Made by a program: the position numbers and the translations under genes. DNA of 64,000 nt from Bacteroidota bacterium (GTDB lineage: Bacteria; Bacteroidota; Bacteroidia; Flavobacteriales_F; PHOS-HE28), in assembly GCA_014584605.1 (NCBI GenBank), contig JACTMO010000027.1:11690-75689 (forward strand), written 5' to 3'. Below are positions 44,421 to 61,678 of the stretch, piece after piece. Position 1 is the stretch's first letter, and every line of letters begins with the position of its first letter. The notes under the pieces were generated by a model, which made no database searches, had not been told where the DNA came from, and saw nothing but the letters and a program-made list of their open reading frames with translations.

Positions 44421-44445
44421 ATATGATGTTTGTCAGTCAATGAAG
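44421..44445 (+). promoter_or_regulatory. AT-rich patch ATATGATGTTTGTCAGTCAATGAAG in the 611-aa gene/norZ divergent region, related to the 30461 and 32005 motifs
   Basis: It contains GATGTTTGTC. This is the only AT-rich stretch in a 380-bp GC-rich intergenic region. Confidence 0.25.
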
Positions 44446-44768: not shown

Positions 44769-47084
44769 ATGACCGACCGTCCCGTGCTCCGTTGGCTGAT
44801 GCAGCCGCGCCATTGGTGGATCCCTCTGCTGGCCATCTTCCTCATCAGCGCGGCCGGTGTTTCGTGGATCGTGCATGAGGCGTACCATGATGCCCCTCCC
44901 CTTGCGAACATGGTGGGCCCCGACGGAGAGGTGGTGGTGCGGGGCGAGGGGATCCGCGACGGTCAGGAGGTGTTCCTGAAGCATGCGCTGATGGAGTACG
45001 GAAGCATGTTCGGCGATGGTGCCGGCCGCGGTCCCGATCTCACAGCCGAAGCGCTGCACCTCACGGCAGGCTTCATGCGCGAGCACATCGCCGGGGAGCT
45101 TGAGCGTGCGCAGGGCGCACCACCGGACCCGGACGAACTGCTGGCGATCGCCGAACGGGTGAAACGGGAGCTGAAGGCCTCGGCCTATGACCCGGCGGCC
45201 GACGTGGTGCGGCTCACCGCCGCACAGGTGGCGGCCGTGGAGCGGCTCCGCGCGTACACCGTGGACCGCTTCACCCGGCAGGCGCGGCCAGGCTCCTTTC
45301 CACCACCGGGCTTCCTCACGGACACCGTCGCCTTGCGCGCGCTGAGCGACTTCTTCTTCTGGGGAGGCTGGGTCTGTGCGGCCCAACGACCGGGCGAGAC
45401 CTTCAGCTACACGCACAACTGGCCCTACGACCCCGATGCGGGCAACCTGCCCACCGGCCCCGTGCTGTGGTGGAGCGTGATCGGTGTGCTGGTCTTCATC
45501 CTCGCGCTGGGGGCCGTACTGTTCGCCTACGGCCAGTTCGACAGCCTCAACGAGGAGAGCCTGACGGCCGGGTCCGGCGAGCGCATGGACGCCGCTGCCG
45601 TTCGCGACTTCAGGCCAGGCCCGCTGCAGCGCGCCACCTTCAAGTATTTCCTGGCTGCCGCGTTGGTCTTCGTGGTCCAGGTGCTCAGCGGTGCCATCAC
45701 CATCACGTCCTTCACCGACTATCTGGGCAAGGTGGGCATCGACCTATCCGGGGTTCTTCCCCTGGTGGTATCGCGCAGCTGGCACCTGTCGCTCGCCTTG
45801 TTCTGGATCAGCGCCTGTTGGATCGGCATCTCCATCTTCCTGGTCCCGATGATCGGCAGGGAGACCGCAGGCCTCGTGCGGTGGACGAACGTGCTGTTCT
45901 GGGCCATCGTGGTGCTGGTGGCCGGCACGGTGGCGGGCTCCTACGCCGGGCCGATGGGCCTGCTGGGCGGGCATTGGTCCATGCTGGGGCACCAGGGATG
46001 GGAGTTCGTGGAGTTCGGCCGCCTGTTCCAGGGCTTGCTGCTCGCGGTGCTCGTCACCTGGGCGGCCATCCTTTACGCAGGCTGCCGGCCCGCCTTCCGC
46101 AAGGGCCGACCGTGGGCGCTGCCCAACTGGCTGGTGTACTCCACGGTGTGCATCAGCCTGCTGCTGCTGTCGGGCTTCGTTTCCACGCCACGGACCAACT
46201 TCGTCATCGCCGACCTGTGGCGTTGGGCGGTGATCCACATGTGGGTGGAGGCCTTCTTCGAAGTGTTCACCACCATCGTGGTGGGCTGGCTCATGGTGCG
46301 CATGGGCCTGGTGGGACAGGCCTCGGTGACCCGCGTGGTCTACCTGGCCACGCTGCTCTTCCTGGGATCGGGCCTGCTGGGCATCTCGCACAACTTTTAC
46401 TGGAACGCCAAGCCGGTGGCCACCATGGCCCTGGGGAGCGTATTCAGCACCCTGCAGGTGGTGCCGCTGATCCTGCTCACCCTGGAGGCCTGGCGTTTCA
46501 ACCGGATGCGGCGTGAACGGACGACCCCTGCGGGTGCCTTCGGCCAGTCGGAGGTGTTCCTGTTCCTGGTGGCGGTGAACTTCTGGAACTTCTTCGGGGC
46601 CGGTGTGCTCGGCCTGATCATCAACCTGCCCATCGTGAACTACTACGAGCACGGCACCTACCTCACGGTCAACCACGGGCACGCCGCGCTCTTCGGCGTG
46701 TACGGCAACCTCTCGATCGCCGCGCTCCTCTTCTGCTGCAAACTGCTGATGGAACCCGGCGCATGGAACGGTCGTTGGGTGCGCATCGCGTTCTGGTCGC
46801 TCAACATCGGCCTGCTGCTCATGGTGGTGATGGACCTGCTCCCGGCCGGTCTGGTGCAACTGCAGGCGGTGCTGGAGCACGGTTTCTGGTACGCCCGGTC
46901 CGAACAGTTCATCGGAGGACCGGTGTTCGAGGGGCTCACCTGGCTGCGCGGTATCGGCGCCACGCTCTTCATCCTGGGCGGGGTGTTCCCCATCGCCTGG
47001 GCGGTGCTGAGGGGTGCCCGGCGGCTGAAGCCTTTGCGCACACGGCAGGAAAGGACGGTGGAAGCGGAGATGTCCGTCGGCTGA
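44769..47084 (+). CDS. norZ: Quinol-dependent nitric oxide reductase (qNOR, single-subunit NorZ/NorB type)
   Basis: Start trimmed to MTDRPVLRWLMQPRHWWIPLL. An N-terminal extension of about 290 aa has one TM and no CxxCH. The haem-copper core carries HMWVEAFFE, ISHNFYWNAKP and VNHGHAALFGVYG. Confidence 0.9.
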   Translation: MTDRPVLRWLMQPRHWWIPLLAIFLISAAGVSWIVHEAYHDAPPLANMVGPDGEVVVRGEGIRDGQEVFLKHALMEYGSMFGDGAGRGPDLTAEALHLTAGFMREHIAGELERAQGAPPDPDELLAIAERVKRELKASAYDPAADVVRLTAAQVAAVERLRAYTVDRFTRQARPGSFPPPGFLTDTVALRALSDFFFWGGWVCAAQRPGETFSYTHNWPYDPDAGNLPTGPVLWWSVIGVLVFILALGAVLFAYGQFDSLNEESLTAGSGERMDAAAVRDFRPGPLQRATFKYFLAAALVFVVQVLSGAITITSFTDYLGKVGIDLSGVLPLVVSRSWHLSLALFWISACWIGISIFLVPMIGRETAGLVRWTNVLFWAIVVLVAGTVAGSYAGPMGLLGGHWSMLGHQGWEFVEFGRLFQGLLLAVLVTWAAILYAGCRPAFRKGRPWALPNWLVYSTVCISLLLLSGFVSTPRTNFVIADLWRWAVIHMWVEAFFEVFTTIVVGWLMVRMGLVGQASVTRVVYLATLLFLGSGLLGISHNFYWNAKPVATMALGSVFSTLQVVPLILLTLEAWRFNRMRRERTTPAGAFGQSEVFLFLVAVNFWNFFGAGVLGLIINLPIVNYYEHGTYLTVNHGHAALFGVYGNLSIAALLFCCKLLMEPGAWNGRWVRIAFWSLNIGLLLMVVMDLLPAGLVQLQAVLEHGFWYARSEQFIGGPVFEGLTWLRGIGATLFILGGVFPIAWAVLRGARRLKPLRTRQERTVEAEMSVG

Positions 47085-47149: not shown

Positions 47150-48697
47150 TCAGCTCACGGGCTCCACCTCCCAGCAGTGCGCCCCGACGCTTTCGGGCTC
47201 GTTCAGCGCGGCCTCGGCCACGGTGCGGGCCACCACCAGCAGGTCACGGAGGTCCATCAAGGCCGTGGTCCACCGGCGCCGCTCCCAGATGGGCTGCACC
47301 TGCCGGCTGATGCGGTTGATGGCGCGCAGGGAATGCTGCAGGCCGTGCTCGGTGCGTATGATGCCCACGTGCTTGGTCATGGTGTGCGTGAGGGCGGCCA
47401 TGGCGCGGTCCACCACCTCCACGGGCCGTTTGGCCAGGCGGTCGCGCCGGATGATGCGCTGGGGCAGGGGTGCCACGGCCGGCAGGTCCTCCCAGGCGAC
47501 CTCTGCGGCGCGTTTGGGGATCACCAGGGCCTCCAGGAGCGAGTTGGACGCGAGCCGGTCGGCACCGTGCACCCCGCTGCCCGCACATTCACCCAGGGCG
47601 AAGAGCCCCGGGATGGAGGTGCGCCCCCGGTCGTCGGTGCGCAGACCACCGCACATGTAGTGGACGGCGGGCATCACGGGCAGCAGGTCGCGTCCGGGCA
47701 ACAGGCCGTGGGCGCGACAGGCCAGGGCGATCGCGGGGAACTCATGGGCGAAGCGCTCCACGCCGATGGGTCCGGCGTCCAGCCACACATGAGGCACACC
47801 GGCATGCATCATCTCCCGATGGATGGCGCGGGCCACCACGTTGCGCGGCGCCAGGTCGCCCATGGGGTGCACCCCCCGCATCAGCGGTCGCAGGTCGGCG
47901 CCGAGCAGCCGTGCACCGGCACCGCGCACCGCTTCGCTGATCAGGTTCACCGTGCCGTGGGCGCCGGTGTGGAGGGCCGTGGGATGGAACTGCACGAAGG
48001 CCATGTCGCGCGTGAGGGCTGCGGCACGGATGCCCATGGCGATGCCGTCGCCCGAGGCGCCCTGCGGGTTGGTGGTGTGTTCGTACATCCGTCCCGCCCC
48101 ACCTGTGGCCAGTACCACCAGATGCGCGAACCGGTCCATGACGTCGCCCGTGCGCAGGTCCACGGCACGTACCCCGATGCAACGGCGGTCGGCCCCTTCG
48201 CCCGAGATGATCAGGTCGATGGCCCGCTGATCGGGGAGCACCTCGATCGCGGGCATGAGCTCCACGCGCCGTTGCAGCACGCGCACGATCTCCTCGCCGG
48301 TGCGGTCGCGATGATGCACCACACGGGCCGTGCTGTGCCCGCCTTCCCGGGCCAGGCGCAAGGCCCCATCGGTGCCCCGATCGAAGTGGGCCCCCAGGCC
48401 GATGAGCCCCCGGATCAACGCCGGGCCTTCGCGCACCACCAGGCGGACCACGGCCTCGTCGTTACGGCCGGCCCCTGCCACGAGCGTGTCGCGCACATGG
48501 TCCTCGAACGAATCATCCCCGCGCATCACGGCCGCCACGCCGCCCTGGGCCTGGAAGGAATTGCTCACCTGCACCACGGCCTTGGACAGGATCCGGATGC
48601 GTACCGGCCTCCTCCCCGCCTGGTCGGCCAGCTGGGTGGCGTAGGTCATGCCGGCGATACCGCCGCCCACCACGAGGATCTCGGTCGGTTCGCTCAT
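47150..48697 (-). CDS. nadB: L-aspartate oxidase
   Basis: FAD loop VVGGGIAG, GGVAAV, RVVHHRDRTGEEI and HYMCGGL. The ATG overlaps the nadA stop (ATGA). Confidence 0.9.
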   Translation of the reverse strand: MSEPTEILVVGGGIAGMTYATQLADQAGRRPVRIRILSKAVVQVSNSFQAQGGVAAVMRGDDSFEDHVRDTLVAGAGRNDEAVVRLVVREGPALIRGLIGLGAHFDRGTDGALRLAREGGHSTARVVHHRDRTGEEIVRVLQRRVELMPAIEVLPDQRAIDLIISGEGADRRCIGVRAVDLRTGDVMDRFAHLVVLATGGAGRMYEHTTNPQGASGDGIAMGIRAAALTRDMAFVQFHPTALHTGAHGTVNLISEAVRGAGARLLGADLRPLMRGVHPMGDLAPRNVVARAIHREMMHAGVPHVWLDAGPIGVERFAHEFPAIALACRAHGLLPGRDLLPVMPAVHYMCGGLRTDDRGRTSIPGLFALGECAGSGVHGADRLASNSLLEALVIPKRAAEVAWEDLPAVAPLPQRIIRRDRLAKRPVEVVDRAMAALTHTMTKHVGIIRTEHGLQHSLRAINRISRQVQPIWERRRWTTALMDLRDLLVVARTVAEAALNEPESVGAHCWEVEPVS

Positions 48698-49656
48698 CCC
48701 AGTTCAAGCATGCGGCGCAGCGCGCGGTGCGCCCGAACACGTACGTCCTCGTCCAGCAGGACCTCCGGCCGCTCATCGCGCAGGGCGGCCAGCACCTTCT
48801 CCAGGGTGTTCAGCTTCATGTAAGGGCACTCGCTGCACGCGCAGGCGTTCTCGGCGAAGGCCGGCGCCGCGATCAGCGTCTTGTGCGGCACGCTCTGCCG
48901 CATGTTGTGCAGGATGCCGGCCTCGGTGGCCACGATGAAGGTGTCGGCCGGATCCTCCTGCACGAAGCGCAGCAAGGAGGAGGTGGAGCCCACGTGCTGG
49001 GCCATCTCCAGCACATGCTCGGGGCACTCGGGGTGGGCGATGAGCCTGGCCTCGGGATGCTTGCCCAGCAGCAGCTTCAGCTTGTCGGCGGAGATGTCCA
49101 CGTGCACCTCGCACACACCGTCCCACAGCAACATCTTCCTGCCGGTGACACGCTGCACGTAGGCGCCCAGATGCTTGTCGGGCGCAAAGAGCACGGGGCG
49201 GTCCTTCGGAATGCTCTGGACCACGCGCACCGCGTTGCTGCTGGTGCAGATGATGTCGCTCAGGGCCTTCACCTCGGCCGAGCAATTGATGTAGGTGACG
49301 GCCACGTGCTCGGGGTGGGCCTCGCGGAAAGCGCGGAAGAGGTGAGCCGGGGCCGCATCGGCCAGCGAGCATCCGGCGTTCATGTCGGGCACCAGCACCT
49401 TGCGGCCGGGATTGAGGATCTTGGCCGTCTCGGCCATGAAATGCACCCCGCAGAAGAGGATGATGGGGGCCGAAGCGCGCTCGGCGGCCTGGGCCAATGC
49501 CAGGCTGTCCCCGATATGATCGGCCAGGCTCTGGATCTCGGGCGTCTGGTAGTAGTGGGCCAGGATCACCGCTTTCTTCTCCTGCTTCAAGCGCAGGATC
49601 TCGGCTGTCAGCAGGGCGGCCTGGTCCAGGTCCGGGTTCGGCACGATCGTGCTCAT
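48694..49656 (-). CDS. nadA: Quinolinate synthase
   Basis: Real start MSTIVPNPDLDQAALLTAEI (49656). ILAHYYQ, CGVHFMAETAKIL, NAGCSLAD and CSECPYMK (Fe-S ligands). Confidence 0.9.
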   Translation of the reverse strand: MSTIVPNPDLDQAALLTAEILRLKQEKKAVILAHYYQTPEIQSLADHIGDSLALAQAAERASAPIILFCGVHFMAETAKILNPGRKVLVPDMNAGCSLADAAPAHLFRAFREAHPEHVAVTYINCSAEVKALSDIICTSSNAVRVVQSIPKDRPVLFAPDKHLGAYVQRVTGRKMLLWDGVCEVHVDISADKLKLLLGKHPEARLIAHPECPEHVLEMAQHVGSTSSLLRFVQEDPADTFIVATEAGILHNMRQSVPHKTLIAAPAFAENACACSECPYMKLNTLEKVLAALRDERPEVLLDEDVRVRAHRALRRMLELG

Positions 49657-51011
49657 GGTTTCTCCACGGTGTGTGCAGGGGTCCGGTCCTGAACGATCGC
49701 TGCGGCCGATGCCGGTCGGAAGCTGGCCTGGAGCAGCGGCACGGCGATGAGGGCCAGGCCCGCCGCCACACCGAAGCCGGCCACCACGAACACCTGCAGC
49801 ACGGGGTCCACGGGTGCCATGAGCTGCGTATGGTCCGTGATGCCCAGGGCCGTCATGCGCCAGCCCTTGATGAGGCCTGCGACGATCAGGGCCACCCAGA
49901 ACACCACCAGGCTGTACACCGCCAGCAGGCGGCCGCGTTCCATCCAGCGCCCACCGCCACCCGCCTGATCGACCCGCAGGACCCACGTCAGGGACCCCAG
50001 CAGGATCATGGTGTTGATGCCGACGGTGGTGCCCATGGCATGGGCCACCGTGACGTGGGTGCCATGGGTGTACCGGTTGATGGCCGGGAAGGACATCAGC
50101 AGCGCGAGGGCCAGGTTGAGGAAGACCCACAGCTCGGCGGTGATCAGGAAGCGGTAGGTGGTGAGATGGCCGAGGCGGCGGTTCTCGGCGAGCTTGGCCT
50201 TGAACCCGCGGATGATGTCGATGAGCAGCACCCACTCGGCCATGCTGATGGCGTATGCGGTATGCCGGATCCACCCGGCCGTGGGCGCACTGTAGATGTG
50301 ATGCCCCCAGTTGAACATCAGGTTCGACAGGCCCAGGAACCAGAAGGCGAAGACCTTCGGCCCCCGGGCGATGCGGTCGTCGCCGCCGATCCGGGTCATC
50401 AGGTACAGGGCGGACCCGTAGATCATCTGGTTCCAGGCGCCCACCATGGCGCCGTTCGACTTCCACTGCACGGTGATCTCGCGCATGTAGGTATCCCGGA
50501 ACCAGGGTATCTGCCAGAGGTTCTGTTCCAGGAAGGTGATCAGGAAGAAGACCACCCCGGTGGTCCACATCCACACGTAGAGCGGCGGGTCCGTTGGGCG
50601 CTGGCGCCAGGCCCGGAAGTGGTCCACCATGAAGAGCAGCCAGGCCAGCAACACCGGGATGCCGAGCATGGGCGGGAACTCCCAGTACTCCCTCCCGCCG
50701 AAGCGGTTGAGCGCGTACGCGATGAGGATCGCCACGAAGGAGGCTGCCCAGACGGCGACGAAGACCGTGTACGGCATCGTGGGTCGTGCAAGGCGGAAGG
50801 CTTCGGTGCGGTGATGGGCCACGGCGGCGGACGCCCCGGTGATGATCCAGAACAGGGCGGCGGACACGTGCGCCGGGCGGAGCTTCTTGAAGGCCATCAT
50901 CTGGCCGACGGACGGGTACATGTACGCCAGGCCGGCCAGCAGGCCGAACAACAGCGTGGCCAGCAGCATCAGCAGGGCCAGGCGGACGTGCCAGCGGTGT
51001 GCGGTGTTCAT
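49653..51011 (-). CDS. norB: NorB-like haem-copper oxidase superfamily subunit I (probable nitric oxide reductase catalytic subunit)
   Basis: Real start MNTAHRWHVRLALLML (51011). 12 predicted TM helices. Adjacent His pair NWGHHIY and HGTHVTVAHAMG. It is paired with a NorC-like cytochrome, and its stop overlaps the nadA start. Confidence 0.7.
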   Translation of the reverse strand: MNTAHRWHVRLALLMLLATLLFGLLAGLAYMYPSVGQMMAFKKLRPAHVSAALFWIITGASAAVAHHRTEAFRLARPTMPYTVFVAVWAASFVAILIAYALNRFGGREYWEFPPMLGIPVLLAWLLFMVDHFRAWRQRPTDPPLYVWMWTTGVVFFLITFLEQNLWQIPWFRDTYMREITVQWKSNGAMVGAWNQMIYGSALYLMTRIGGDDRIARGPKVFAFWFLGLSNLMFNWGHHIYSAPTAGWIRHTAYAISMAEWVLLIDIIRGFKAKLAENRRLGHLTTYRFLITAELWVFLNLALALLMSFPAINRYTHGTHVTVAHAMGTTVGINTMILLGSLTWVLRVDQAGGGGRWMERGRLLAVYSLVVFWVALIVAGLIKGWRMTALGITDHTQLMAPVDPVLQVFVVAGFGVAAGLALIAVPLLQASFRPASAAAIVQDRTPAHTVEKP

Positions 51012-51400
51012 GGCGTCAGAATGAATGTGCCCGTCCAGTGCACGGCACTGTCGGGGACCCTGCTCTGGCCGGAGGCGTCCACCCAGGTGAGGAAGGCGAC
51101 CAGGTCGTCCATCTCGGCCGGGGTGATCGGGTGTGCCGGCATGCGAAGGGTGCCGTGCTGCACAAAGGCCCGCACATGGGCATCGCCCTTGGTGGAGACC
51201 ACGTCCGTGAGGTCGGGCCCCATGTAGCCGCCCAGGCCGTACAGCTGATGGCAGGCCACACAATTGTTGGCCTGCCACACGTCCACGCCCCGGCGCACCT
51301 GCGCATCCGCCTTCCCGCCTTCGCCAGTGCCGTGATAGGCGGACCAGGTCCCGACCACGAAGGCCAAGGCGAGGAAGGCCAGCACCTTACGCTGCCACAT
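51008..51400 (-). CDS. norC: NorC-like membrane-anchored mono-haem cytochrome c
   Basis: N-terminal anchor VLAFLALAFVVGTW. GVDVWQANNCVACHQLYGLGGYMGPDLT and MPAHPITPAEMDDLVAFLTW closely resemble my recollection of proteobacterial NorC (VWEQNNCVGCHTLLGEG...PEL; MPQF.LSEGQVDDLAEFLKW). Confidence 0.75.
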   Translation of the reverse strand: MWQRKVLAFLALAFVVGTWSAYHGTGEGGKADAQVRRGVDVWQANNCVACHQLYGLGGYMGPDLTDVVSTKGDAHVRAFVQHGTLRMPAHPITPAEMDDLVAFLTWVDASGQSRVPDSAVHWTGTFILTP

Positions 51401-51435
51401 GGCCGCAAATAACGACCATCAGGTTCGGCAAAAAG

Positions 51436-51449
51436 TTGACGAGCATCAA
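51436..51449 (-). promoter_or_regulatory. FNR/DNR-type box TTGATGCTCGTCAA upstream of norC
   Basis: On the gene strand it reads TTGAT-GCTC-GTCAA, a 9 of 10 match to TTGAT-N4-ATCAA and an exact match to the DNR/NNR variant TTGAT-N4-GTCAA. It is centred about 42 nt upstream of the norC ATG. Confidence 0.5.
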
Positions 51450-51502
51450 CTTCTCGGAAGGGGTCGCGCTGTGGCCCTGGCCTTTGGGCCATGCGCCGAT
51501 CC

Positions 51503-51544
51503 AAAATGTCGAAGGCTGCGGTCCCCGGGAGGTCCGCAGCCTTC
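51503..51544 (-). terminator. Rho-independent terminator downstream of nrdJ
   Basis: On the minus strand: GAAGGCTGCGG-(12-nt loop)-CCGCAGCCTTC, a perfect 11-bp stem followed by GACATTTTGG. The stem begins 21 nt after the nrdJ stop. Confidence 0.6.
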
Positions 51545-51564
51545 GCTGTTCCGGGGTCCGCGCC

Positions 51565-54150
51565 CTATCCGCACTTGCTGCTTCCGCAGCTGCGGCACTT
51601 CAGACAGCCCTCCTCGTAATACACCCCTTCGCTGTCGCCGCAGTCGGCGCACTTGCGACCGCCGGCGCTGGTGCCGTCGGGGATGTAGCGCGAGAGGGCC
51701 CGCACCACACCGTTCTTCCAGGTGTTCAGGGTGGCATCGTACAGGTTGAGGTTGGCCACCACGTCCACCACCTGCAGCACGGGCATGCCCTGGCGCAACA
51801 TGCCGCTGATCAGGATCGCGTAGTTCCAGAACTCCTTGTTGAAGGTGCGGCTCAGGCCCTGCACGGTGACGTTGTAGCCCTCGTCGTCGTCGTACTCCAG
51901 GTCGTAGCGGTTCTTGTCGCGCTTGGCGTCGCGGCGCTTCACCACCCATCCGCGGCTCACCCAGCGCGGCAGCTCGAAGCCGCCGTTGGCCTTGCCGGTG
52001 AAGATCTCGTACGGCTTGCCATCGAGCAGGCCCACCACGGCGATCCACGGCTCGGTCTCGTTGTTGAAGCGCAGGACGTCGGCCTCCAGGCGCTCGGGGC
52101 GGGGCATGGCGTGCGCTGCGAGGTCCTTGGCGGCCTCCTTGTCCTTCTTATCGTCGGTGGAGATGAGCACGCCGCTGCGGCTGCCGTCGCGGTAGACCGT
52201 GATGCCCTTGAGGCCCTGGTGCCAGGCCTCCAGGTAGATGCTTCCGACCTCGTCCACCGTGGCCGTGGCCGGCAGGTTGATGGTGCTGCTGATGCTGTGG
52301 GTGGTGTACTTCTGCACCACGGCCTGCATGCGGATGCGCTTGTGCCAGTCGATGTCGTTGGCGGTGGCGCCGGCATAGGGGCTTTCGGCGGGGTCGGTCT
52401 TGCCGGTGGCCTCCATCCAGTCGACCACGCGCGGGTGGTGCACGGTGAACTCCTCCCATTGGTCGCCCAGGTCGTCGGTGAAGGTGACCTTGGCGTCCGG
52501 GGTGCCGGGCACCAGCTTGCGGCGACGGGTGTAGCCGAGCATGTAGACCGGTTCGATGCCGCTGCTGGTACGGGTGAGCAGGCTCAGGGTGCCGGTGGGT
52601 GCCACGGTGCTGAGGCTGATGTTGCGGCGGCCGTGGCGCATCATGCGATCATGCACCTCGGACAGTTCCTTGCCCAGCATGGTCACGAACTCGCTGCTGC
52701 GCTCCACGGCGGGCGAGAAGCCCTCGAAGGCCCCGCGCTCAATGGCCATGTCGATGCTGCTGTCGAACTCCGCGCGGCACTTGGTGCGCAGGATGTCCTC
52801 GGCGGCCTCGATGGCGGCGTCGCTGTCGTACTTGAGGCCCAAGGCGGCCAGCGCGTCGGCCAGTCCGGTGAAGCCCAGTCCCGTGCGGCGCCCCTTGCGC
52901 CCCGTGTCGCGCAGCAGCTCCCAGGTCTCGCGTTCGGTGCGCTTCAACTCATCCGGCTCGGGATCGGCGTCCACTTTTTCCAGGATGCGGTCCACCGCCA
53001 TGAGCTCCAGGTCCACCAGGTCGTCCATGAGACGCTGCGCCTCGTAAGTGACGGCGGCGAAGCGCTCGTGGTCGAACCATGCGCGGTGGGTGAAGGGCTC
53101 ATTGACGAAGTTGTGCAGGTTGATGGCGATCAACCGGCAGCTGTCCCCGCCCTGCATGGCGATCTCGCTGCACGGATTGGTGCTTTCGTTGCGGAAGCCC
53201 GGATACACGCTGCTGGTGCTGTACAGGTGCTGCCGGTCCCAGAAGATCACCCCGGGTTCGGCGGTGGCGTGGGCGCAGGTGATCAGCGTGCTCCAGAGCT
53301 CGCGTGCCTTCACCACCTTGGTCACCGAGGGTTTCGGTGCATCGATGGGCCAGCGCAGGGTGAAATCGGCATCGGCCTCCACGGCCCGCAGGAACTCGTC
53401 GCTCACACGCACGCTCACGTTGGCGCCGGTGACCTTGGCCAGGTCCTGCTTGATGGTGATGAAGTGCTCCACATCGGGGTGGGCGATGTCCATGGTGAGC
53501 ATCAGCGCGCCCCTCCTGCCCTTCTGGGCCACCTCGCGCGTGGTGTTGCTGAAGCGCTCCATGAAGCTCACCGCGCCGGTGCTGGTGCGTGCGGCGTTGC
53601 TCACCGAGGCCCCGGCGGGACGCAGCGTGCTGAGGTCGAAGCCCACCCCGCAGCGGCGCTTGAAGAGCTGGGCGAGCTGCTGGTCGTTGTGGAAGATGCC
53701 CCCGTAGCTGTCCAGCGGCGAAGGGATCACCACGCAGTTGCTCAGGGAGGCCAGGCGGAAGGGGTCGCCCAGCGAGGCCATCACGCTTCCCTGCGGCACC
53801 ACGTCGCGGAACCCGTCGAAGAGCTTGAAGATGCGTTCCTCGTCCAGCGGGTCGCGGGTGCGGCCATACGTCGAGAGCAGGTTCCGCTTCTCCGCCGGCA
53901 CCGCTCCGTACTTGGACTCGATGCGGGCGAACTCCCGGGCCATGCGCCGGTGCATGTCCTCCGGGCTCTTCTCCAGCAACCGACCCTGTTCATCGCGCAG
54001 CGCATACTTGTTCACCCAGGTGGTGGCCGCCAGTTCATCGCCTTTGAAGTAGGCCCGGGTGAGCTCAAGCACTTCTTCGGGGCTGAATGGTCCGGTGGTG
54101 GTTCTGGGGGCCACGGTGTTTCGGGCGGTGGATGCGATGAGCGTCGGCAT
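51565..54150 (-). CDS. nrdJ: Class II (adenosylcobalamin-dependent) ribonucleotide reductase
   Basis: Start trimmed to MPTLIAST (54150). FKGDELAATTWVNKYALRD, active-site NPCSEI and RRTGLGFTGLADAL are present. The C-terminal redox/zinc tail reads CADCGDSEGVYYEEGCLKCRSCGSSKCG. Confidence 0.9.
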   Translation of the reverse strand: MPTLIASTARNTVAPRTTTGPFSPEEVLELTRAYFKGDELAATTWVNKYALRDEQGRLLEKSPEDMHRRMAREFARIESKYGAVPAEKRNLLSTYGRTRDPLDEERIFKLFDGFRDVVPQGSVMASLGDPFRLASLSNCVVIPSPLDSYGGIFHNDQQLAQLFKRRCGVGFDLSTLRPAGASVSNAARTSTGAVSFMERFSNTTREVAQKGRRGALMLTMDIAHPDVEHFITIKQDLAKVTGANVSVRVSDEFLRAVEADADFTLRWPIDAPKPSVTKVVKARELWSTLITCAHATAEPGVIFWDRQHLYSTSSVYPGFRNESTNPCSEIAMQGGDSCRLIAINLHNFVNEPFTHRAWFDHERFAAVTYEAQRLMDDLVDLELMAVDRILEKVDADPEPDELKRTERETWELLRDTGRKGRRTGLGFTGLADALAALGLKYDSDAAIEAAEDILRTKCRAEFDSSIDMAIERGAFEGFSPAVERSSEFVTMLGKELSEVHDRMMRHGRRNISLSTVAPTGTLSLLTRTSSGIEPVYMLGYTRRRKLVPGTPDAKVTFTDDLGDQWEEFTVHHPRVVDWMEATGKTDPAESPYAGATANDIDWHKRIRMQAVVQKYTTHSISSTINLPATATVDEVGSIYLEAWHQGLKGITVYRDGSRSGVLISTDDKKDKEAAKDLAAHAMPRPERLEADVLRFNNETEPWIAVVGLLDGKPYEIFTGKANGGFELPRWVSRGWVVKRRDAKRDKNRYDLEYDDDEGYNVTVQGLSRTFNKEFWNYAILISGMLRQGMPVLQVVDVVANLNLYDATLNTWKNGVVRALSRYIPDGTSAGGRKCADCGDSEGVYYEEGCLKCRSCGSSKCG

Positions 54151-54360
54151 GGATCGGAATGGTGAGGGCGTCAAAACTCCCCGCAAGATCTTCCGACCGG
54201 ACTGATGCGGATCATCCTCGGCGGATCGATCATCAACACGGTTGTGAACGATCCGCGCAGAGTCGCGATCGGCGCGGCCTGGAACGACAAGAGCGCCCTG
54301 CGGGAGGGCGCCCTTGCCGACTTTCACCGACATGCCACCGGGCACGTCGAGGCGATCCGC

Positions 54361-61647: not shown

Positions 61648-61678
61648 GCAAATTTGCACACTCTATGACAATTGTCAT
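61648..61678. promoter_or_regulatory. Two perfect AT-rich palindromes, GCAAATTTGC and ATGACAATTGTCAT, in the nos/12-TM-gene divergent promoter region
   Basis: GCAAATTTGC lies at 61648-61657 and ATGACAATTGTCAT at 61665-61678, 7 nt apart. The second ends 40 nt upstream of the ATG at 61718. Confidence 0.45.

Follow-up and report, generated by a model that had tools for sequence, protein, structure and literature searches.

Aerobic/anaerobic enzyme pairs are known, i.e., hemF/hemN and nrdAB/nrdDG. In NAD synthesis, three steps of the kynurenine route depend on O2, and NadA and NadB bypass this route (Perli et al. 2021, PMC8262920). Anaerobic fungi acquired nadAB and therefore synthesize NAD without O2, while their kynurenine genes were lost (PMC8262920). 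In our literature searches we found no paper on low-O2-switched NAD synthesis routes in bacteria and nothing relevant on a link of norCB with nadAB or of NsrR with nadA. For the haem-copper enzymes, Murali et al. 2024 described an uncharacterised 'N2O red' family near cNOR that is without the active-site Tyr, a proposal prompted by the Bacteroidetes bacterium Flexibacter canadensis (PMC11214002).

We analyzed a window of 64,000 nucleotides from a Bacteroidota genome, in which a four-gene block probably places an O2-free back-up NAD route under a low-oxygen/NO switch. As in hemF/hemN and nrdAB/nrdDG, an O2-independent alternative would replace a failing O2-requiring route. In contrast to hemF/hemN, it is a whole branch that would be swapped, i.e., NadB-NadA versus TDO-KMO-kynureninase-HAAO, and this branch is fused to a haem-copper enzyme. 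Unlike in the anaerobic fungi, neither route has been lost in the bacterium, and the anaerobic one seems to be under regulation.

The block comprises four consecutive minus-strand genes, namely those for a cytochrome c with the motif CVACH (51400-51008, 130 aa), a haem-copper subunit I (51011-49653, 452 aa), the [4Fe-4S] quinolinate synthase NadA (49656-48694, 320 aa) and the FAD enzyme L-aspartate oxidase, NadB (48697-47150, 515 aa). They are joined by ATGA start/stop overlaps at 51011-51008, 49656-49653 and 48697-48694, exactly the positions given in an earlier note on this sequence, and intergenic space between the four genes is therefore zero. A motif scan between the block genes, including the junction of the norB-like gene with nadA, where the earlier note had considered an internal promoter and terminator, gave neither a sigma-70-like site or a Bacteroidetes -7 motif nor a convincing terminator. 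Rfam elements or riboswitches upstream of nadA, nrdJ and the cytochrome c gene were not found at E ≤ 1. From its layout, the block is predicted to be co-transcribed as one operon, although there may be a weak promoter inside it. NadA matched NF006878 at 436 bits (cut-off 294) and TIGR00550 at 366 bits (cut-off 263), with its ligand cysteines C96, C182 and C274/C277 kept in 60/60 aligned NadA sequences. NadB matched TIGR00551 with a narrow margin (457.1 bits versus a cut-off of 452.75). Further copies of either gene, a possibility that had been raised before, were not found in the 99.9%-complete genome, i.e., nadA and nadB are both single copies, and the next matches to the NadB model were SdhA-like at no more than 115 bits.

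The 452-aa subunit I is a member of an uncharacterised family of Bacteroidota proteins close to cNOR NorB and cbb3 CcoN. This family is large, with members in 572 species-representative genomes and about 17% of our class sample. Databases name it NorB or cbb3 oxidase, and NCBI calls members cbb3-type subunit. The gene layout resembles that of cNOR, i.e., a small, putatively membrane-anchored cytochrome c is encoded first, followed by a 12-helix subunit I of about 450 aa. Subunit I also has the GREYxE loop, HH pair, helix-II His and proximal His of cNOR, with H48, H237/H238 and H324 retained. The stretch between residues 132 and 236 is free of His and thus lacks the helix-VI His, the column of which is an invariant Gly/Asn inside QWKSNG in the family alignment. 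In HMMER alignments against 4XYD and 3O0R, the column of cNOR Glu211 (P. aeruginosa numbering) is an invariant Val190, this column being approximate with a gap nearby. In the helix-X motif AHAM, the invariant M326 replaces the second His of the cNOR HxH, and the low-spin haem ligands are by alignment His/Met, not His/His. L231/M232 occupy the position of the cbb3 helix-VII Tyr.

Due to these changed active-site ligands, subunit I is not part of a canonical respiratory NorCB, and the names norC and norB used in the earlier note were not borne out. We rejected canonical cNOR because the helix-VI His, the active-site Glu and the second helix-X His are all absent. An O2-reducing oxidase, which the earlier note had also taken into account, was rejected because the His-Tyr cross-link pair of cbb3 is absent, i.e., the ligand residues do not support it. 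We also rejected eNOR, sNOR, gNOR and nNOR, which are B-family relatives with CuA-type subunits, whereas subunit I is nearest to cNOR and cbb3. An AlphaFold model (pLDDT 84, pTM 0.87) had the 12-helix haem-copper subunit I fold. Foldseek with this model gave cbb3 CcoN (3MK7, 6XKW) as the best structural match (TM 0.83 to 3MK7), followed by TM 0.78–0.80 to 4XYD and 0.77–0.80 across 3O0R/4XYD. In contrast to cbb3, ccoO and ccoP are absent beside the enzyme gene, and a genuine cbb3 gene is encoded separately in the genome, on contig C60. A search of the PDB with the single subunit I sequence gave zero matches. The family profile was needed here, and it matched best to 4XYD (43 bits), then comparably to cbb3 CcoN (35 bits). 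Subunit I reached no NCBIfam model, and its Pfam match was generic COX1 alone (74 bits).

The partner cytochrome c matched PF13442 (39.5 bits) and PF00034 (37.3 bits) but stayed under the cut-off of PF22085 (22.7 versus 29 bits), so that it passes the cut-offs of generic cytochrome c models only. It is a monohaem protein with a single N-terminal hydrophobic segment and without a cytoplasmic partner domain, and is presumed to be periplasmic and membrane-anchored. Its gene was found directly upstream of the oxidase gene in 80/80 loci examined.

In contrast to cNOR, the neighbours of the family are NO-stress or nadAB genes, not norQD or nir genes. In Chitinophagales, the enzyme is followed by genes for a hemerythrin, an Rrf2 regulator, a conserved unknown membrane protein and a RIC/YtfE-like protein, and at one locus (L147) the order is nadA-nadB-RIC-Rrf2 on the same strand. 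The cytochrome c/subunit I enzyme most likely handles NO, with a rebuilt active site. The 'N2O red' family is of a size of similar order to the present one, the two being compared by description only (PMC11214002). Unlike what this family name suggests, however, the neighbours Rrf2, RIC, hemerythrin and nadAB point to NO, not N2O, and the genome already has a NosZ cluster. For annotation, the enzyme gene should not count as norB in denitrification inventories. The conserved partners (NsrR-like regulator, RIC, hemerythrin, nadAB) suggest that the family helps its hosts to deal with NO in oxic/anoxic habitats such as wastewater sludge, in which these bacteria are consumers but not producers of NO and N2O.

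Upstream of the cytochrome c gene we found a Crp/Fnr-type palindrome, TTGATGCTCGTCAA (51436..51449, minus strand), 36-49 nt before the ATG. It is one mismatch from TTGAT-N4-ATCAA. Its centre is about 42 nt from the ATG and, with a very short or absent leader, at a similar distance from the likely transcription start, as in FNR/ANR/FixK class II promoters. The FNR-type box described in the earlier note is hence present, but in its exact form, TTGA-N6-TCAA, it is conserved at this promoter in this genome and its nearest relative (L030) only, whereas a looser form is found genus-wide. From aligned upstream regions we derived this conserved operator as TGAY-N4-RTCA and used it in place of the exact FNR box. 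In the window, TTGA-N6-TCAA occurs three times (0.21 expected) and TGAY-N4-RTCA 14 times (3.0 expected), with the qNOR-like gene, nrdJ and nos among those preceded by the latter. A TGAY-N4-RTCA box is also located 35–65 nt ahead of the start of the cytochrome c gene in about 20 related loci of the genus. Moreover, it precedes nadA in 7/14 genus loci without oxidase and in loci of other families (L141, L143-L147), with a chance expectation before nadA of about 0.02 per locus.

Six nucleotides before the cytochrome c ATG, the sequence TTATTTG (51406..51412, minus strand) is like the Bacteroidetes -7 element TAnnTTTG, and similar T-rich elements were present at the same place in five other loci (L025, L027, L031, L033, L150). 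Such an element would imply a very short or absent leader and would put the box centre near -42, i.e., in class II geometry. Four HTH_Crp_2 matches are encoded in the genome; three score above the curated cut-off, and one of the four lies in the window. The Crp/Fnr protein of the window shares 28% and 19% identity with the two regulators located between nadAB and oxidase in L141, and this comparison was uninformative.

A strong hairpin followed by AUUUU (51501..51545, minus strand, -28.3 kcal/mol, z -4.1) just past the nrdJ stop codon is probably the terminator of the upstream nrdJ transcript, which would leave the cytochrome c promoter on its own. nrdJ encodes a B12-dependent, i.e., O2-independent, class II ribonucleotide reductase (51565..54150, minus strand; TIGR02504, 486 bits, cut-off 400) and is equipped with a separate TGAY-N4-RTCA box (54203-54214). 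In several sister species (L111, L112, L114, L115), nrdJ lies directly upstream of nadA and the oxidase genes are absent between them. Convergent with nadB is the gene for a qNOR-like haem-copper protein of 771 aa (44769..47084, plus strand), with a TGAY-N4-RTCA box at 44424-44435 in its upstream region. A clade II nos cluster is also located in the window.

To assess how often the enzyme is linked to nadA, we used a class sample of 401 genomes, 68 of which have the enzyme and 59 of these 68 also nadA. Synteny was scored in 80 loci and in these 68 genomes, compared with 572 genomes that have the family. In 15/59 genomes from ten families, nadA was found within 5 kb of the enzyme gene, versus about 0.2 genomes expected by chance according to our own estimate. 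The linkage, which the earlier note had reported from a single locus, is thus not a one-off. It occurs in five arrangements, i.e., downstream, upstream, divergent, and convergent with or without intervening genes, and on the enzyme tree the linkage state changes at least 11 times. Within this one genus, two enzyme clades of 43% identity are each found upstream of nadAB. In the tree, the genus 'type 1' enzyme branches within a Chitinophagales clade, which indicates horizontal transfer, and in a divergent NadA clade 7/8 members are linked to the enzyme. Related genomes are not independent, and part of the recurrence may therefore be inherited or cassette-spread. We also noted a transposase adjoining the cluster in two loci (L026/L139).

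NirK and NirS were not found in the genome. The organism is therefore not a denitrifier, and 'denitrification control' of de novo NAD synthesis, as put forward in the earlier note, is inaccurate. In contrast, the idea of a conditional control is supported in the form of a low-O2/NO control, which is backed by the ten-family linkage and by the boxes before oxidase-free nadA.

The genome encodes a second way to quinolinate. Kynurenine-route enzymes were found as TDO (PF03301, 189 + 90 bits), kynureninase (TIGR01814, 432 bits) and 3-hydroxyanthranilate dioxygenase (3-HAO; PF06052, 180 bits), together with nadC (TIGR00078, 300 bits). We judged the route on TDO, kynureninase, 3-HAO and QPRTase. Within the genus, 3-HAO is present in 60/61 genomes but nadA in 24/61 only, from which we conclude that nadAB is accessory and the kynurenine route core. 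The presence of this second route explains why nadAB tolerates a conditional promoter. In the class, 57/67 enzyme-bearing genomes have the kynurenine route. A predicted excess of the route in nadAB-linked genomes was rejected, with 13/15 linked versus 37/44 unlinked genomes. As the route is common throughout the class and no more so in linked genomes, the two-route argument explains the tolerance of conditional control, not the origin of the linkage. Two linked genomes (G333, G210) were without 3-HAO.

On balance, we favour the explanation that the block is a single Crp/Fnr-driven low-O2/NO operon, in which an enzyme related to cNOR and cbb3 is combined with nadAB as the O2-independent quinolinate route for times when the air-phase kynurenine route fails. 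Crp/Fnr activation from the class II promoter would read cytochrome c, subunit I, nadA and nadB as one transcript, and the low-oxygen/NO regulon of the window would also take in the qNOR-like gene, the class II ribonucleotide reductase gene and the clade II nos genes. nadAB would sit in this regulon because its quinolinate route is O2-independent as well as O2- and NO-labile. In air, the O2-dependent tryptophan/kynurenine route would supply NAD; without oxygen, nadAB would take over, with NadB handing its electrons to fumarate. We propose in this way the acting regulator and its signal, the enzyme activity and the division of labour between the routes. If this is true, NAD biosynthesis joins the pathways, those of haem and ribonucleotides among them, that run in aerobic and anaerobic versions under FNR-type control. 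More tentatively, and with somewhat less confidence than would be needed to expect it, many Bacteroidota may switch between the kynurenine and nadAB routes with oxygen. A Crp/Fnr-type regulator would then couple a horizontally mobile, accessory nadAB to the NOR/cbb3-like enzyme for anoxic, NO-exposed conditions. The recurrent fusion of the genes would in this case reflect a mutual functional dependence of enzyme and NadA, with NO/O2 scavenging preserving NadA. The nadAB linkage also offers a way into a large haem-copper family that is mis-annotated in databases.

Along the lines of the rationale in the earlier note, nadAB might be co-induced with an NO-removing enzyme to replace and locally protect damaged NadA, the link then being NO, not oxygen. 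This fits with Rrf2 (NsrR-like), RIC/YtfE-like and hemerythrin genes as the commonest neighbours of the enzyme, with RIC and Rrf2 after nadA-nadB on the same strand in L147, with the two NOR-type genes that flank nadAB here, and with the absence of a detected nitrite reductase, so that the NO enzymes must face NO from outside. However, that NO harms NadA is an assumption drawn from its type of exposed [4Fe-4S] cluster, the removal of NO by the enzyme is a predicted activity, and the contrast of accessory nadA and core kynurenine route in the genus is left unexplained. We therefore regard NO damage as unlikely to be the main reason for the linkage, although it is compatible with the low-O2/NO operon and not exclusive of it, as low-O2 and NO signals commonly act through the same regulators.

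Still less probable is that the linkage has no functional meaning, i.e., that a mobile cytochrome c/oxidase module inserted upstream of nadAB or that a four-gene cassette spread. The tree and the context are to some extent in line with mobility: nrdJ directly before nadA in the sister species suggests that the oxidase pair was inserted, the 'type 1' enzyme was apparently transferred horizontally, the divergent NadA clade accompanies the enzyme, and a transposase lies beside the cluster in the two loci mentioned. Neutral hitch-hiking would, however, hardly give ten families, five arrangements and at least 11 state changes, or two enzyme clades arriving independently upstream of nadAB in one genus. 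The observed-to-expected linkage of about 15 to 0.2 and the common operator boxes on nadA alone also speak against it. Finally, cytochrome c and oxidase could be a dedicated electron sink for amino-acid-oxidising flavoenzymes, NadB here and proline dehydrogenase elsewhere. We consider this very improbable: NadB is soluble and cytoplasmic, has a tiny flux and O2 and fumarate as known acceptors, whereas the cytochrome c is presumed periplasmic and has no domain for a cytoplasmic partner, and the divergent and convergent arrangements do not suggest a complex. Nevertheless, NadB and proline dehydrogenase alike use FAD and require an electron acceptor, and proline dehydrogenase is often encoded downstream of the enzyme where nadAB is not (L015, L016, L019, L023, Flavobacteriales-type).

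Four consecutive ORFs occupy positions 51400–47150 on the minus strand of the window and are joined, as the earlier note had described, by ATGA start/stop overlaps at 51011–51008, 49656–49653 and 48697–48694. The first encodes a 130-aa cytochrome c that has a hydrophobic segment at its N-terminus, carries the haem-c site CVACH and is matched by generic cytochrome c models. The second product, 452 aa long, is a haem-copper subunit I with a 74-bit match to Pfam COX1. The last two genes encode NadA (quinolinate synthase) and NadB (L-aspartate oxidase), which each exceed the curated equivalog cut-off. NadA keeps its invariant cluster cysteines, and neither nadA nor nadB has a further copy in the genome. 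The names norC and norB used earlier were wrong. Subunit I reached no NCBIfam model, and its ligand set is altered. A promoter and terminator separating "norB" from nadA had also been considered; searches within the block gave neither a sigma-70-like site nor a TAnnTTTG motif, and no terminator that is credible. No Rfam family matched. The block thus appears to be one co-transcribed operon.

The hairpin that closes nrdJ upstream is strong (−28.3 kcal/mol, z −4.1) and is followed by a short U run. Between this hairpin and the cytochrome c ATG lies the palindrome TTGATGCTCGTCAA (51449–51436, minus strand), which confirms the FNR-type box proposed for this site. Located 6 nt before the ATG is a T-rich stretch that looks like a Bacteroidetes −7 box, and we place the putative transcription start of the block here. 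The form of the palindrome that is conserved 5' of cytochrome c within the genus is TGAY-N4-RTCA; this motif is also found ahead of nadA in several other families and, within the genus, at half of the loci without the oxidase. The window holds 14 copies vs 3.0 expected, a 4.7-fold enrichment (44424–44435, 54203–54214, 61666–61677 and others), and copies precede the qNOR-like gene, the nos cluster and nrdJ, which encodes an O2-independent RNR. This distribution suggests one low-O2/NO regulon over a 20-kb island of the window; for the block itself, a Crp/Fnr-type regulator and its signal are predicted.

Single-sequence search with the 452-aa protein found no solved structures, and a profile built from 25 homologues matched cNOR NorB (4XYD, 43 bits) and cbb3 CcoN (35 bits). 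The AlphaFold model (pLDDT 84) superimposed on cbb3 CcoN with TM 0.83 and on cNOR NorB with 0.78–0.80, with qNOR and the A/B families ranking behind. Histidines H48, H237/H238 and H324 are retained, residues 132–236 contain no histidine at all, the helix-VI ligand position falls within an invariant QWKSNG, and Val replaces the cNOR glutamate; these ligand changes are invariant across the family. No tyrosine is suitably placed for a His-Tyr cross-link. From the helix-X motif AHAM, the low-spin haem would be expected to be His/Met-ligated. With neither helix-VI His nor cNOR Glu, the protein is not the canonical NOR it had been taken for; when the Murali et al. 2024 criteria (PMC11214002) are applied, both an O2 reductase and a canonical NOR are ruled out. 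Going by its description, the cNOR-related 'N2O red' family of the same study may include subunit I.

The family of subunit I is large: over 1,600 clusters were retrieved, 572 species-representative genomes carry it, and the subunit I gene is always immediately preceded by the cytochrome c gene. In Chitinophagales-type loci the conserved 3' genes encode a hemerythrin-domain protein, an Rrf2 (NsrR-like) regulator, a ~430-aa polytopic membrane protein and a DUF2249-ScdA_N-hemerythrin protein of RIC/YtfE type. Rrf2/NsrR, RIC/YtfE and hemerythrin are hallmark nitrosative-stress genes, and an NO-related role is therefore our best guess for the enzyme. The membrane protein (~420–435 aa, HAHSH-type motif; loci L045:10275–11585, plus strand, and L142:5993–7261, minus strand) had no Pfam or NCBIfam match; it is a conserved neighbour of the oxidase in each of the two enzyme clades (29% identity, E 2e-30) and in L142 lies between nadB and cytochrome c. 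Four Flavobacteriales-type families without the nadAB link carry proline dehydrogenase directly 3' of the oxidase (L015:244–1434 and L016:185–1402, minus strand; also L019 and L023). NirK and NirS were not found in the 99.9%-complete genome, but it carries a clade II nos cluster and the qNOR-like gene, together with oxidases of the A and cbb3 types, a gene content that makes the organism a consumer rather than a producer of NO and N2O.

The link between enzyme and nadAB is more than chance. The enzyme occurs in 68 of the 401 genomes of the class sample, 59 of which have nadA (the unpublished genomes G153 and G237 were counted only in this tally). In 15 of these 59, from 10 GTDB families, nadA lies within 5 kb of the enzyme, with an estimated ~0.2 linked cases expected by chance for a 3.5-Mb genome, related genomes not being independent. 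The arrangement, new to the earlier note, is hence not unique to the window. Five arrangements occur: the window's order (families f1, f25, f34, f49), nadA-nadB 5' of the enzyme genes and sharing their strand (f7, f33, f56), divergent (f32), convergent (f29), and convergent with RIC and Rrf2 after nadB (f40). On the enzyme tree, the linkage state changes at least 11 times. In the f40 locus (L147:6690–7979, plus strand), the RIC/YtfE-like protein and Rrf2 regulator follow nadA-nadB on the same strand, convergent with the oxidase pair, with a class II RNR gene in the vicinity.

Within the genus, the order cytochrome c, oxidase, nadA, nadB is repeated in many species. Two enzyme clades, 43% identical, are present, one Flavobacteriales-type and the other, including the window's, nested within Chitinophagales; both stand immediately 5' of nadAB. 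In sister species nadA directly follows nrdJ without the oxidase pair between them, and we conclude that the pair was inserted. A divergent NadA clade (L144, L145, L147, L148, L149, L105, L109, L158; Pfam 314–330 bits vs about 410; 37–40% identical to the window's NadA) almost always adjoins oxidase genes. Linkage in seven of its eight members suggests some cassette transfer of nadA with the enzyme. A 'standard' NadA clade of 14 members has no linked case. In f49, divergent NadA stands in place of the 'standard' NadA of a sister genome; in f7, a transposase (rve/HTH_Tnp_1) lies immediately 3' of the nadA-nadB-cytochrome c-oxidase cluster (L139:2590–3858, minus strand, = L026:75–1343).

Conditional control of single-copy nadA and nadB looks dangerous at first sight. 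Yet a predicted kynurenine route to quinolinate makes such control tolerable: tryptophan 2,3-dioxygenase, kynureninase, 3-hydroxyanthranilate 3,4-dioxygenase (3-HAO) and nadC are all encoded in this genome as well. This route requires O2 at three steps; NadB/NadA function without O2, with fumarate as acceptor, and the NadA cluster is oxygen-labile (PMC8262920). Of 61 genomes of the genus, 60 have 3-HAO, which is thus core, and only 24 have the accessory nadA. Across the class, genomes with and without linked nadAB commonly encode the kynurenine route; it accounts for the tolerable control, not for the origin of the fusion.

The four-gene feature is real and recurrent. In the simplest reading, nadAB would belong to the low-O2/NO regulon in its own right, and two members of this regulon would have been fused into one operon in the window genome. 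Most likely, this is a variation on a known theme, in which an anaerobic alternative pathway under FNR control is attached to an uncharacterised enzyme family. That a co-induced NO-removing enzyme shields the NadA [4Fe-4S] cluster, or compensates its damage, is compatible with all data and may hold in part. An oxidase pair serving as electron sink for flavoenzymes such as NadB is a minor alternative, kept alive by the proline dehydrogenase beside the oxidase in other families.

Some assemblies were irregular. The oxidase locus of contig L095, a contig assigned to the Azovibrio restrictus (Betaproteobacteria) bin, is almost the same as L045 of a Bacteroidetes MAG, probably through a binning error. 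In the MAG G007 (L012/L046), nadB is split in two and the oxidase alignment breaks off at residue 365, some 300 nt short of nadA; frameshifts or assembly errors may be responsible. The 76%-complete MAG G062 has oxidase-nadA-nadB on two separate contigs (L132 and L134), possibly by duplication or strain heterogeneity.
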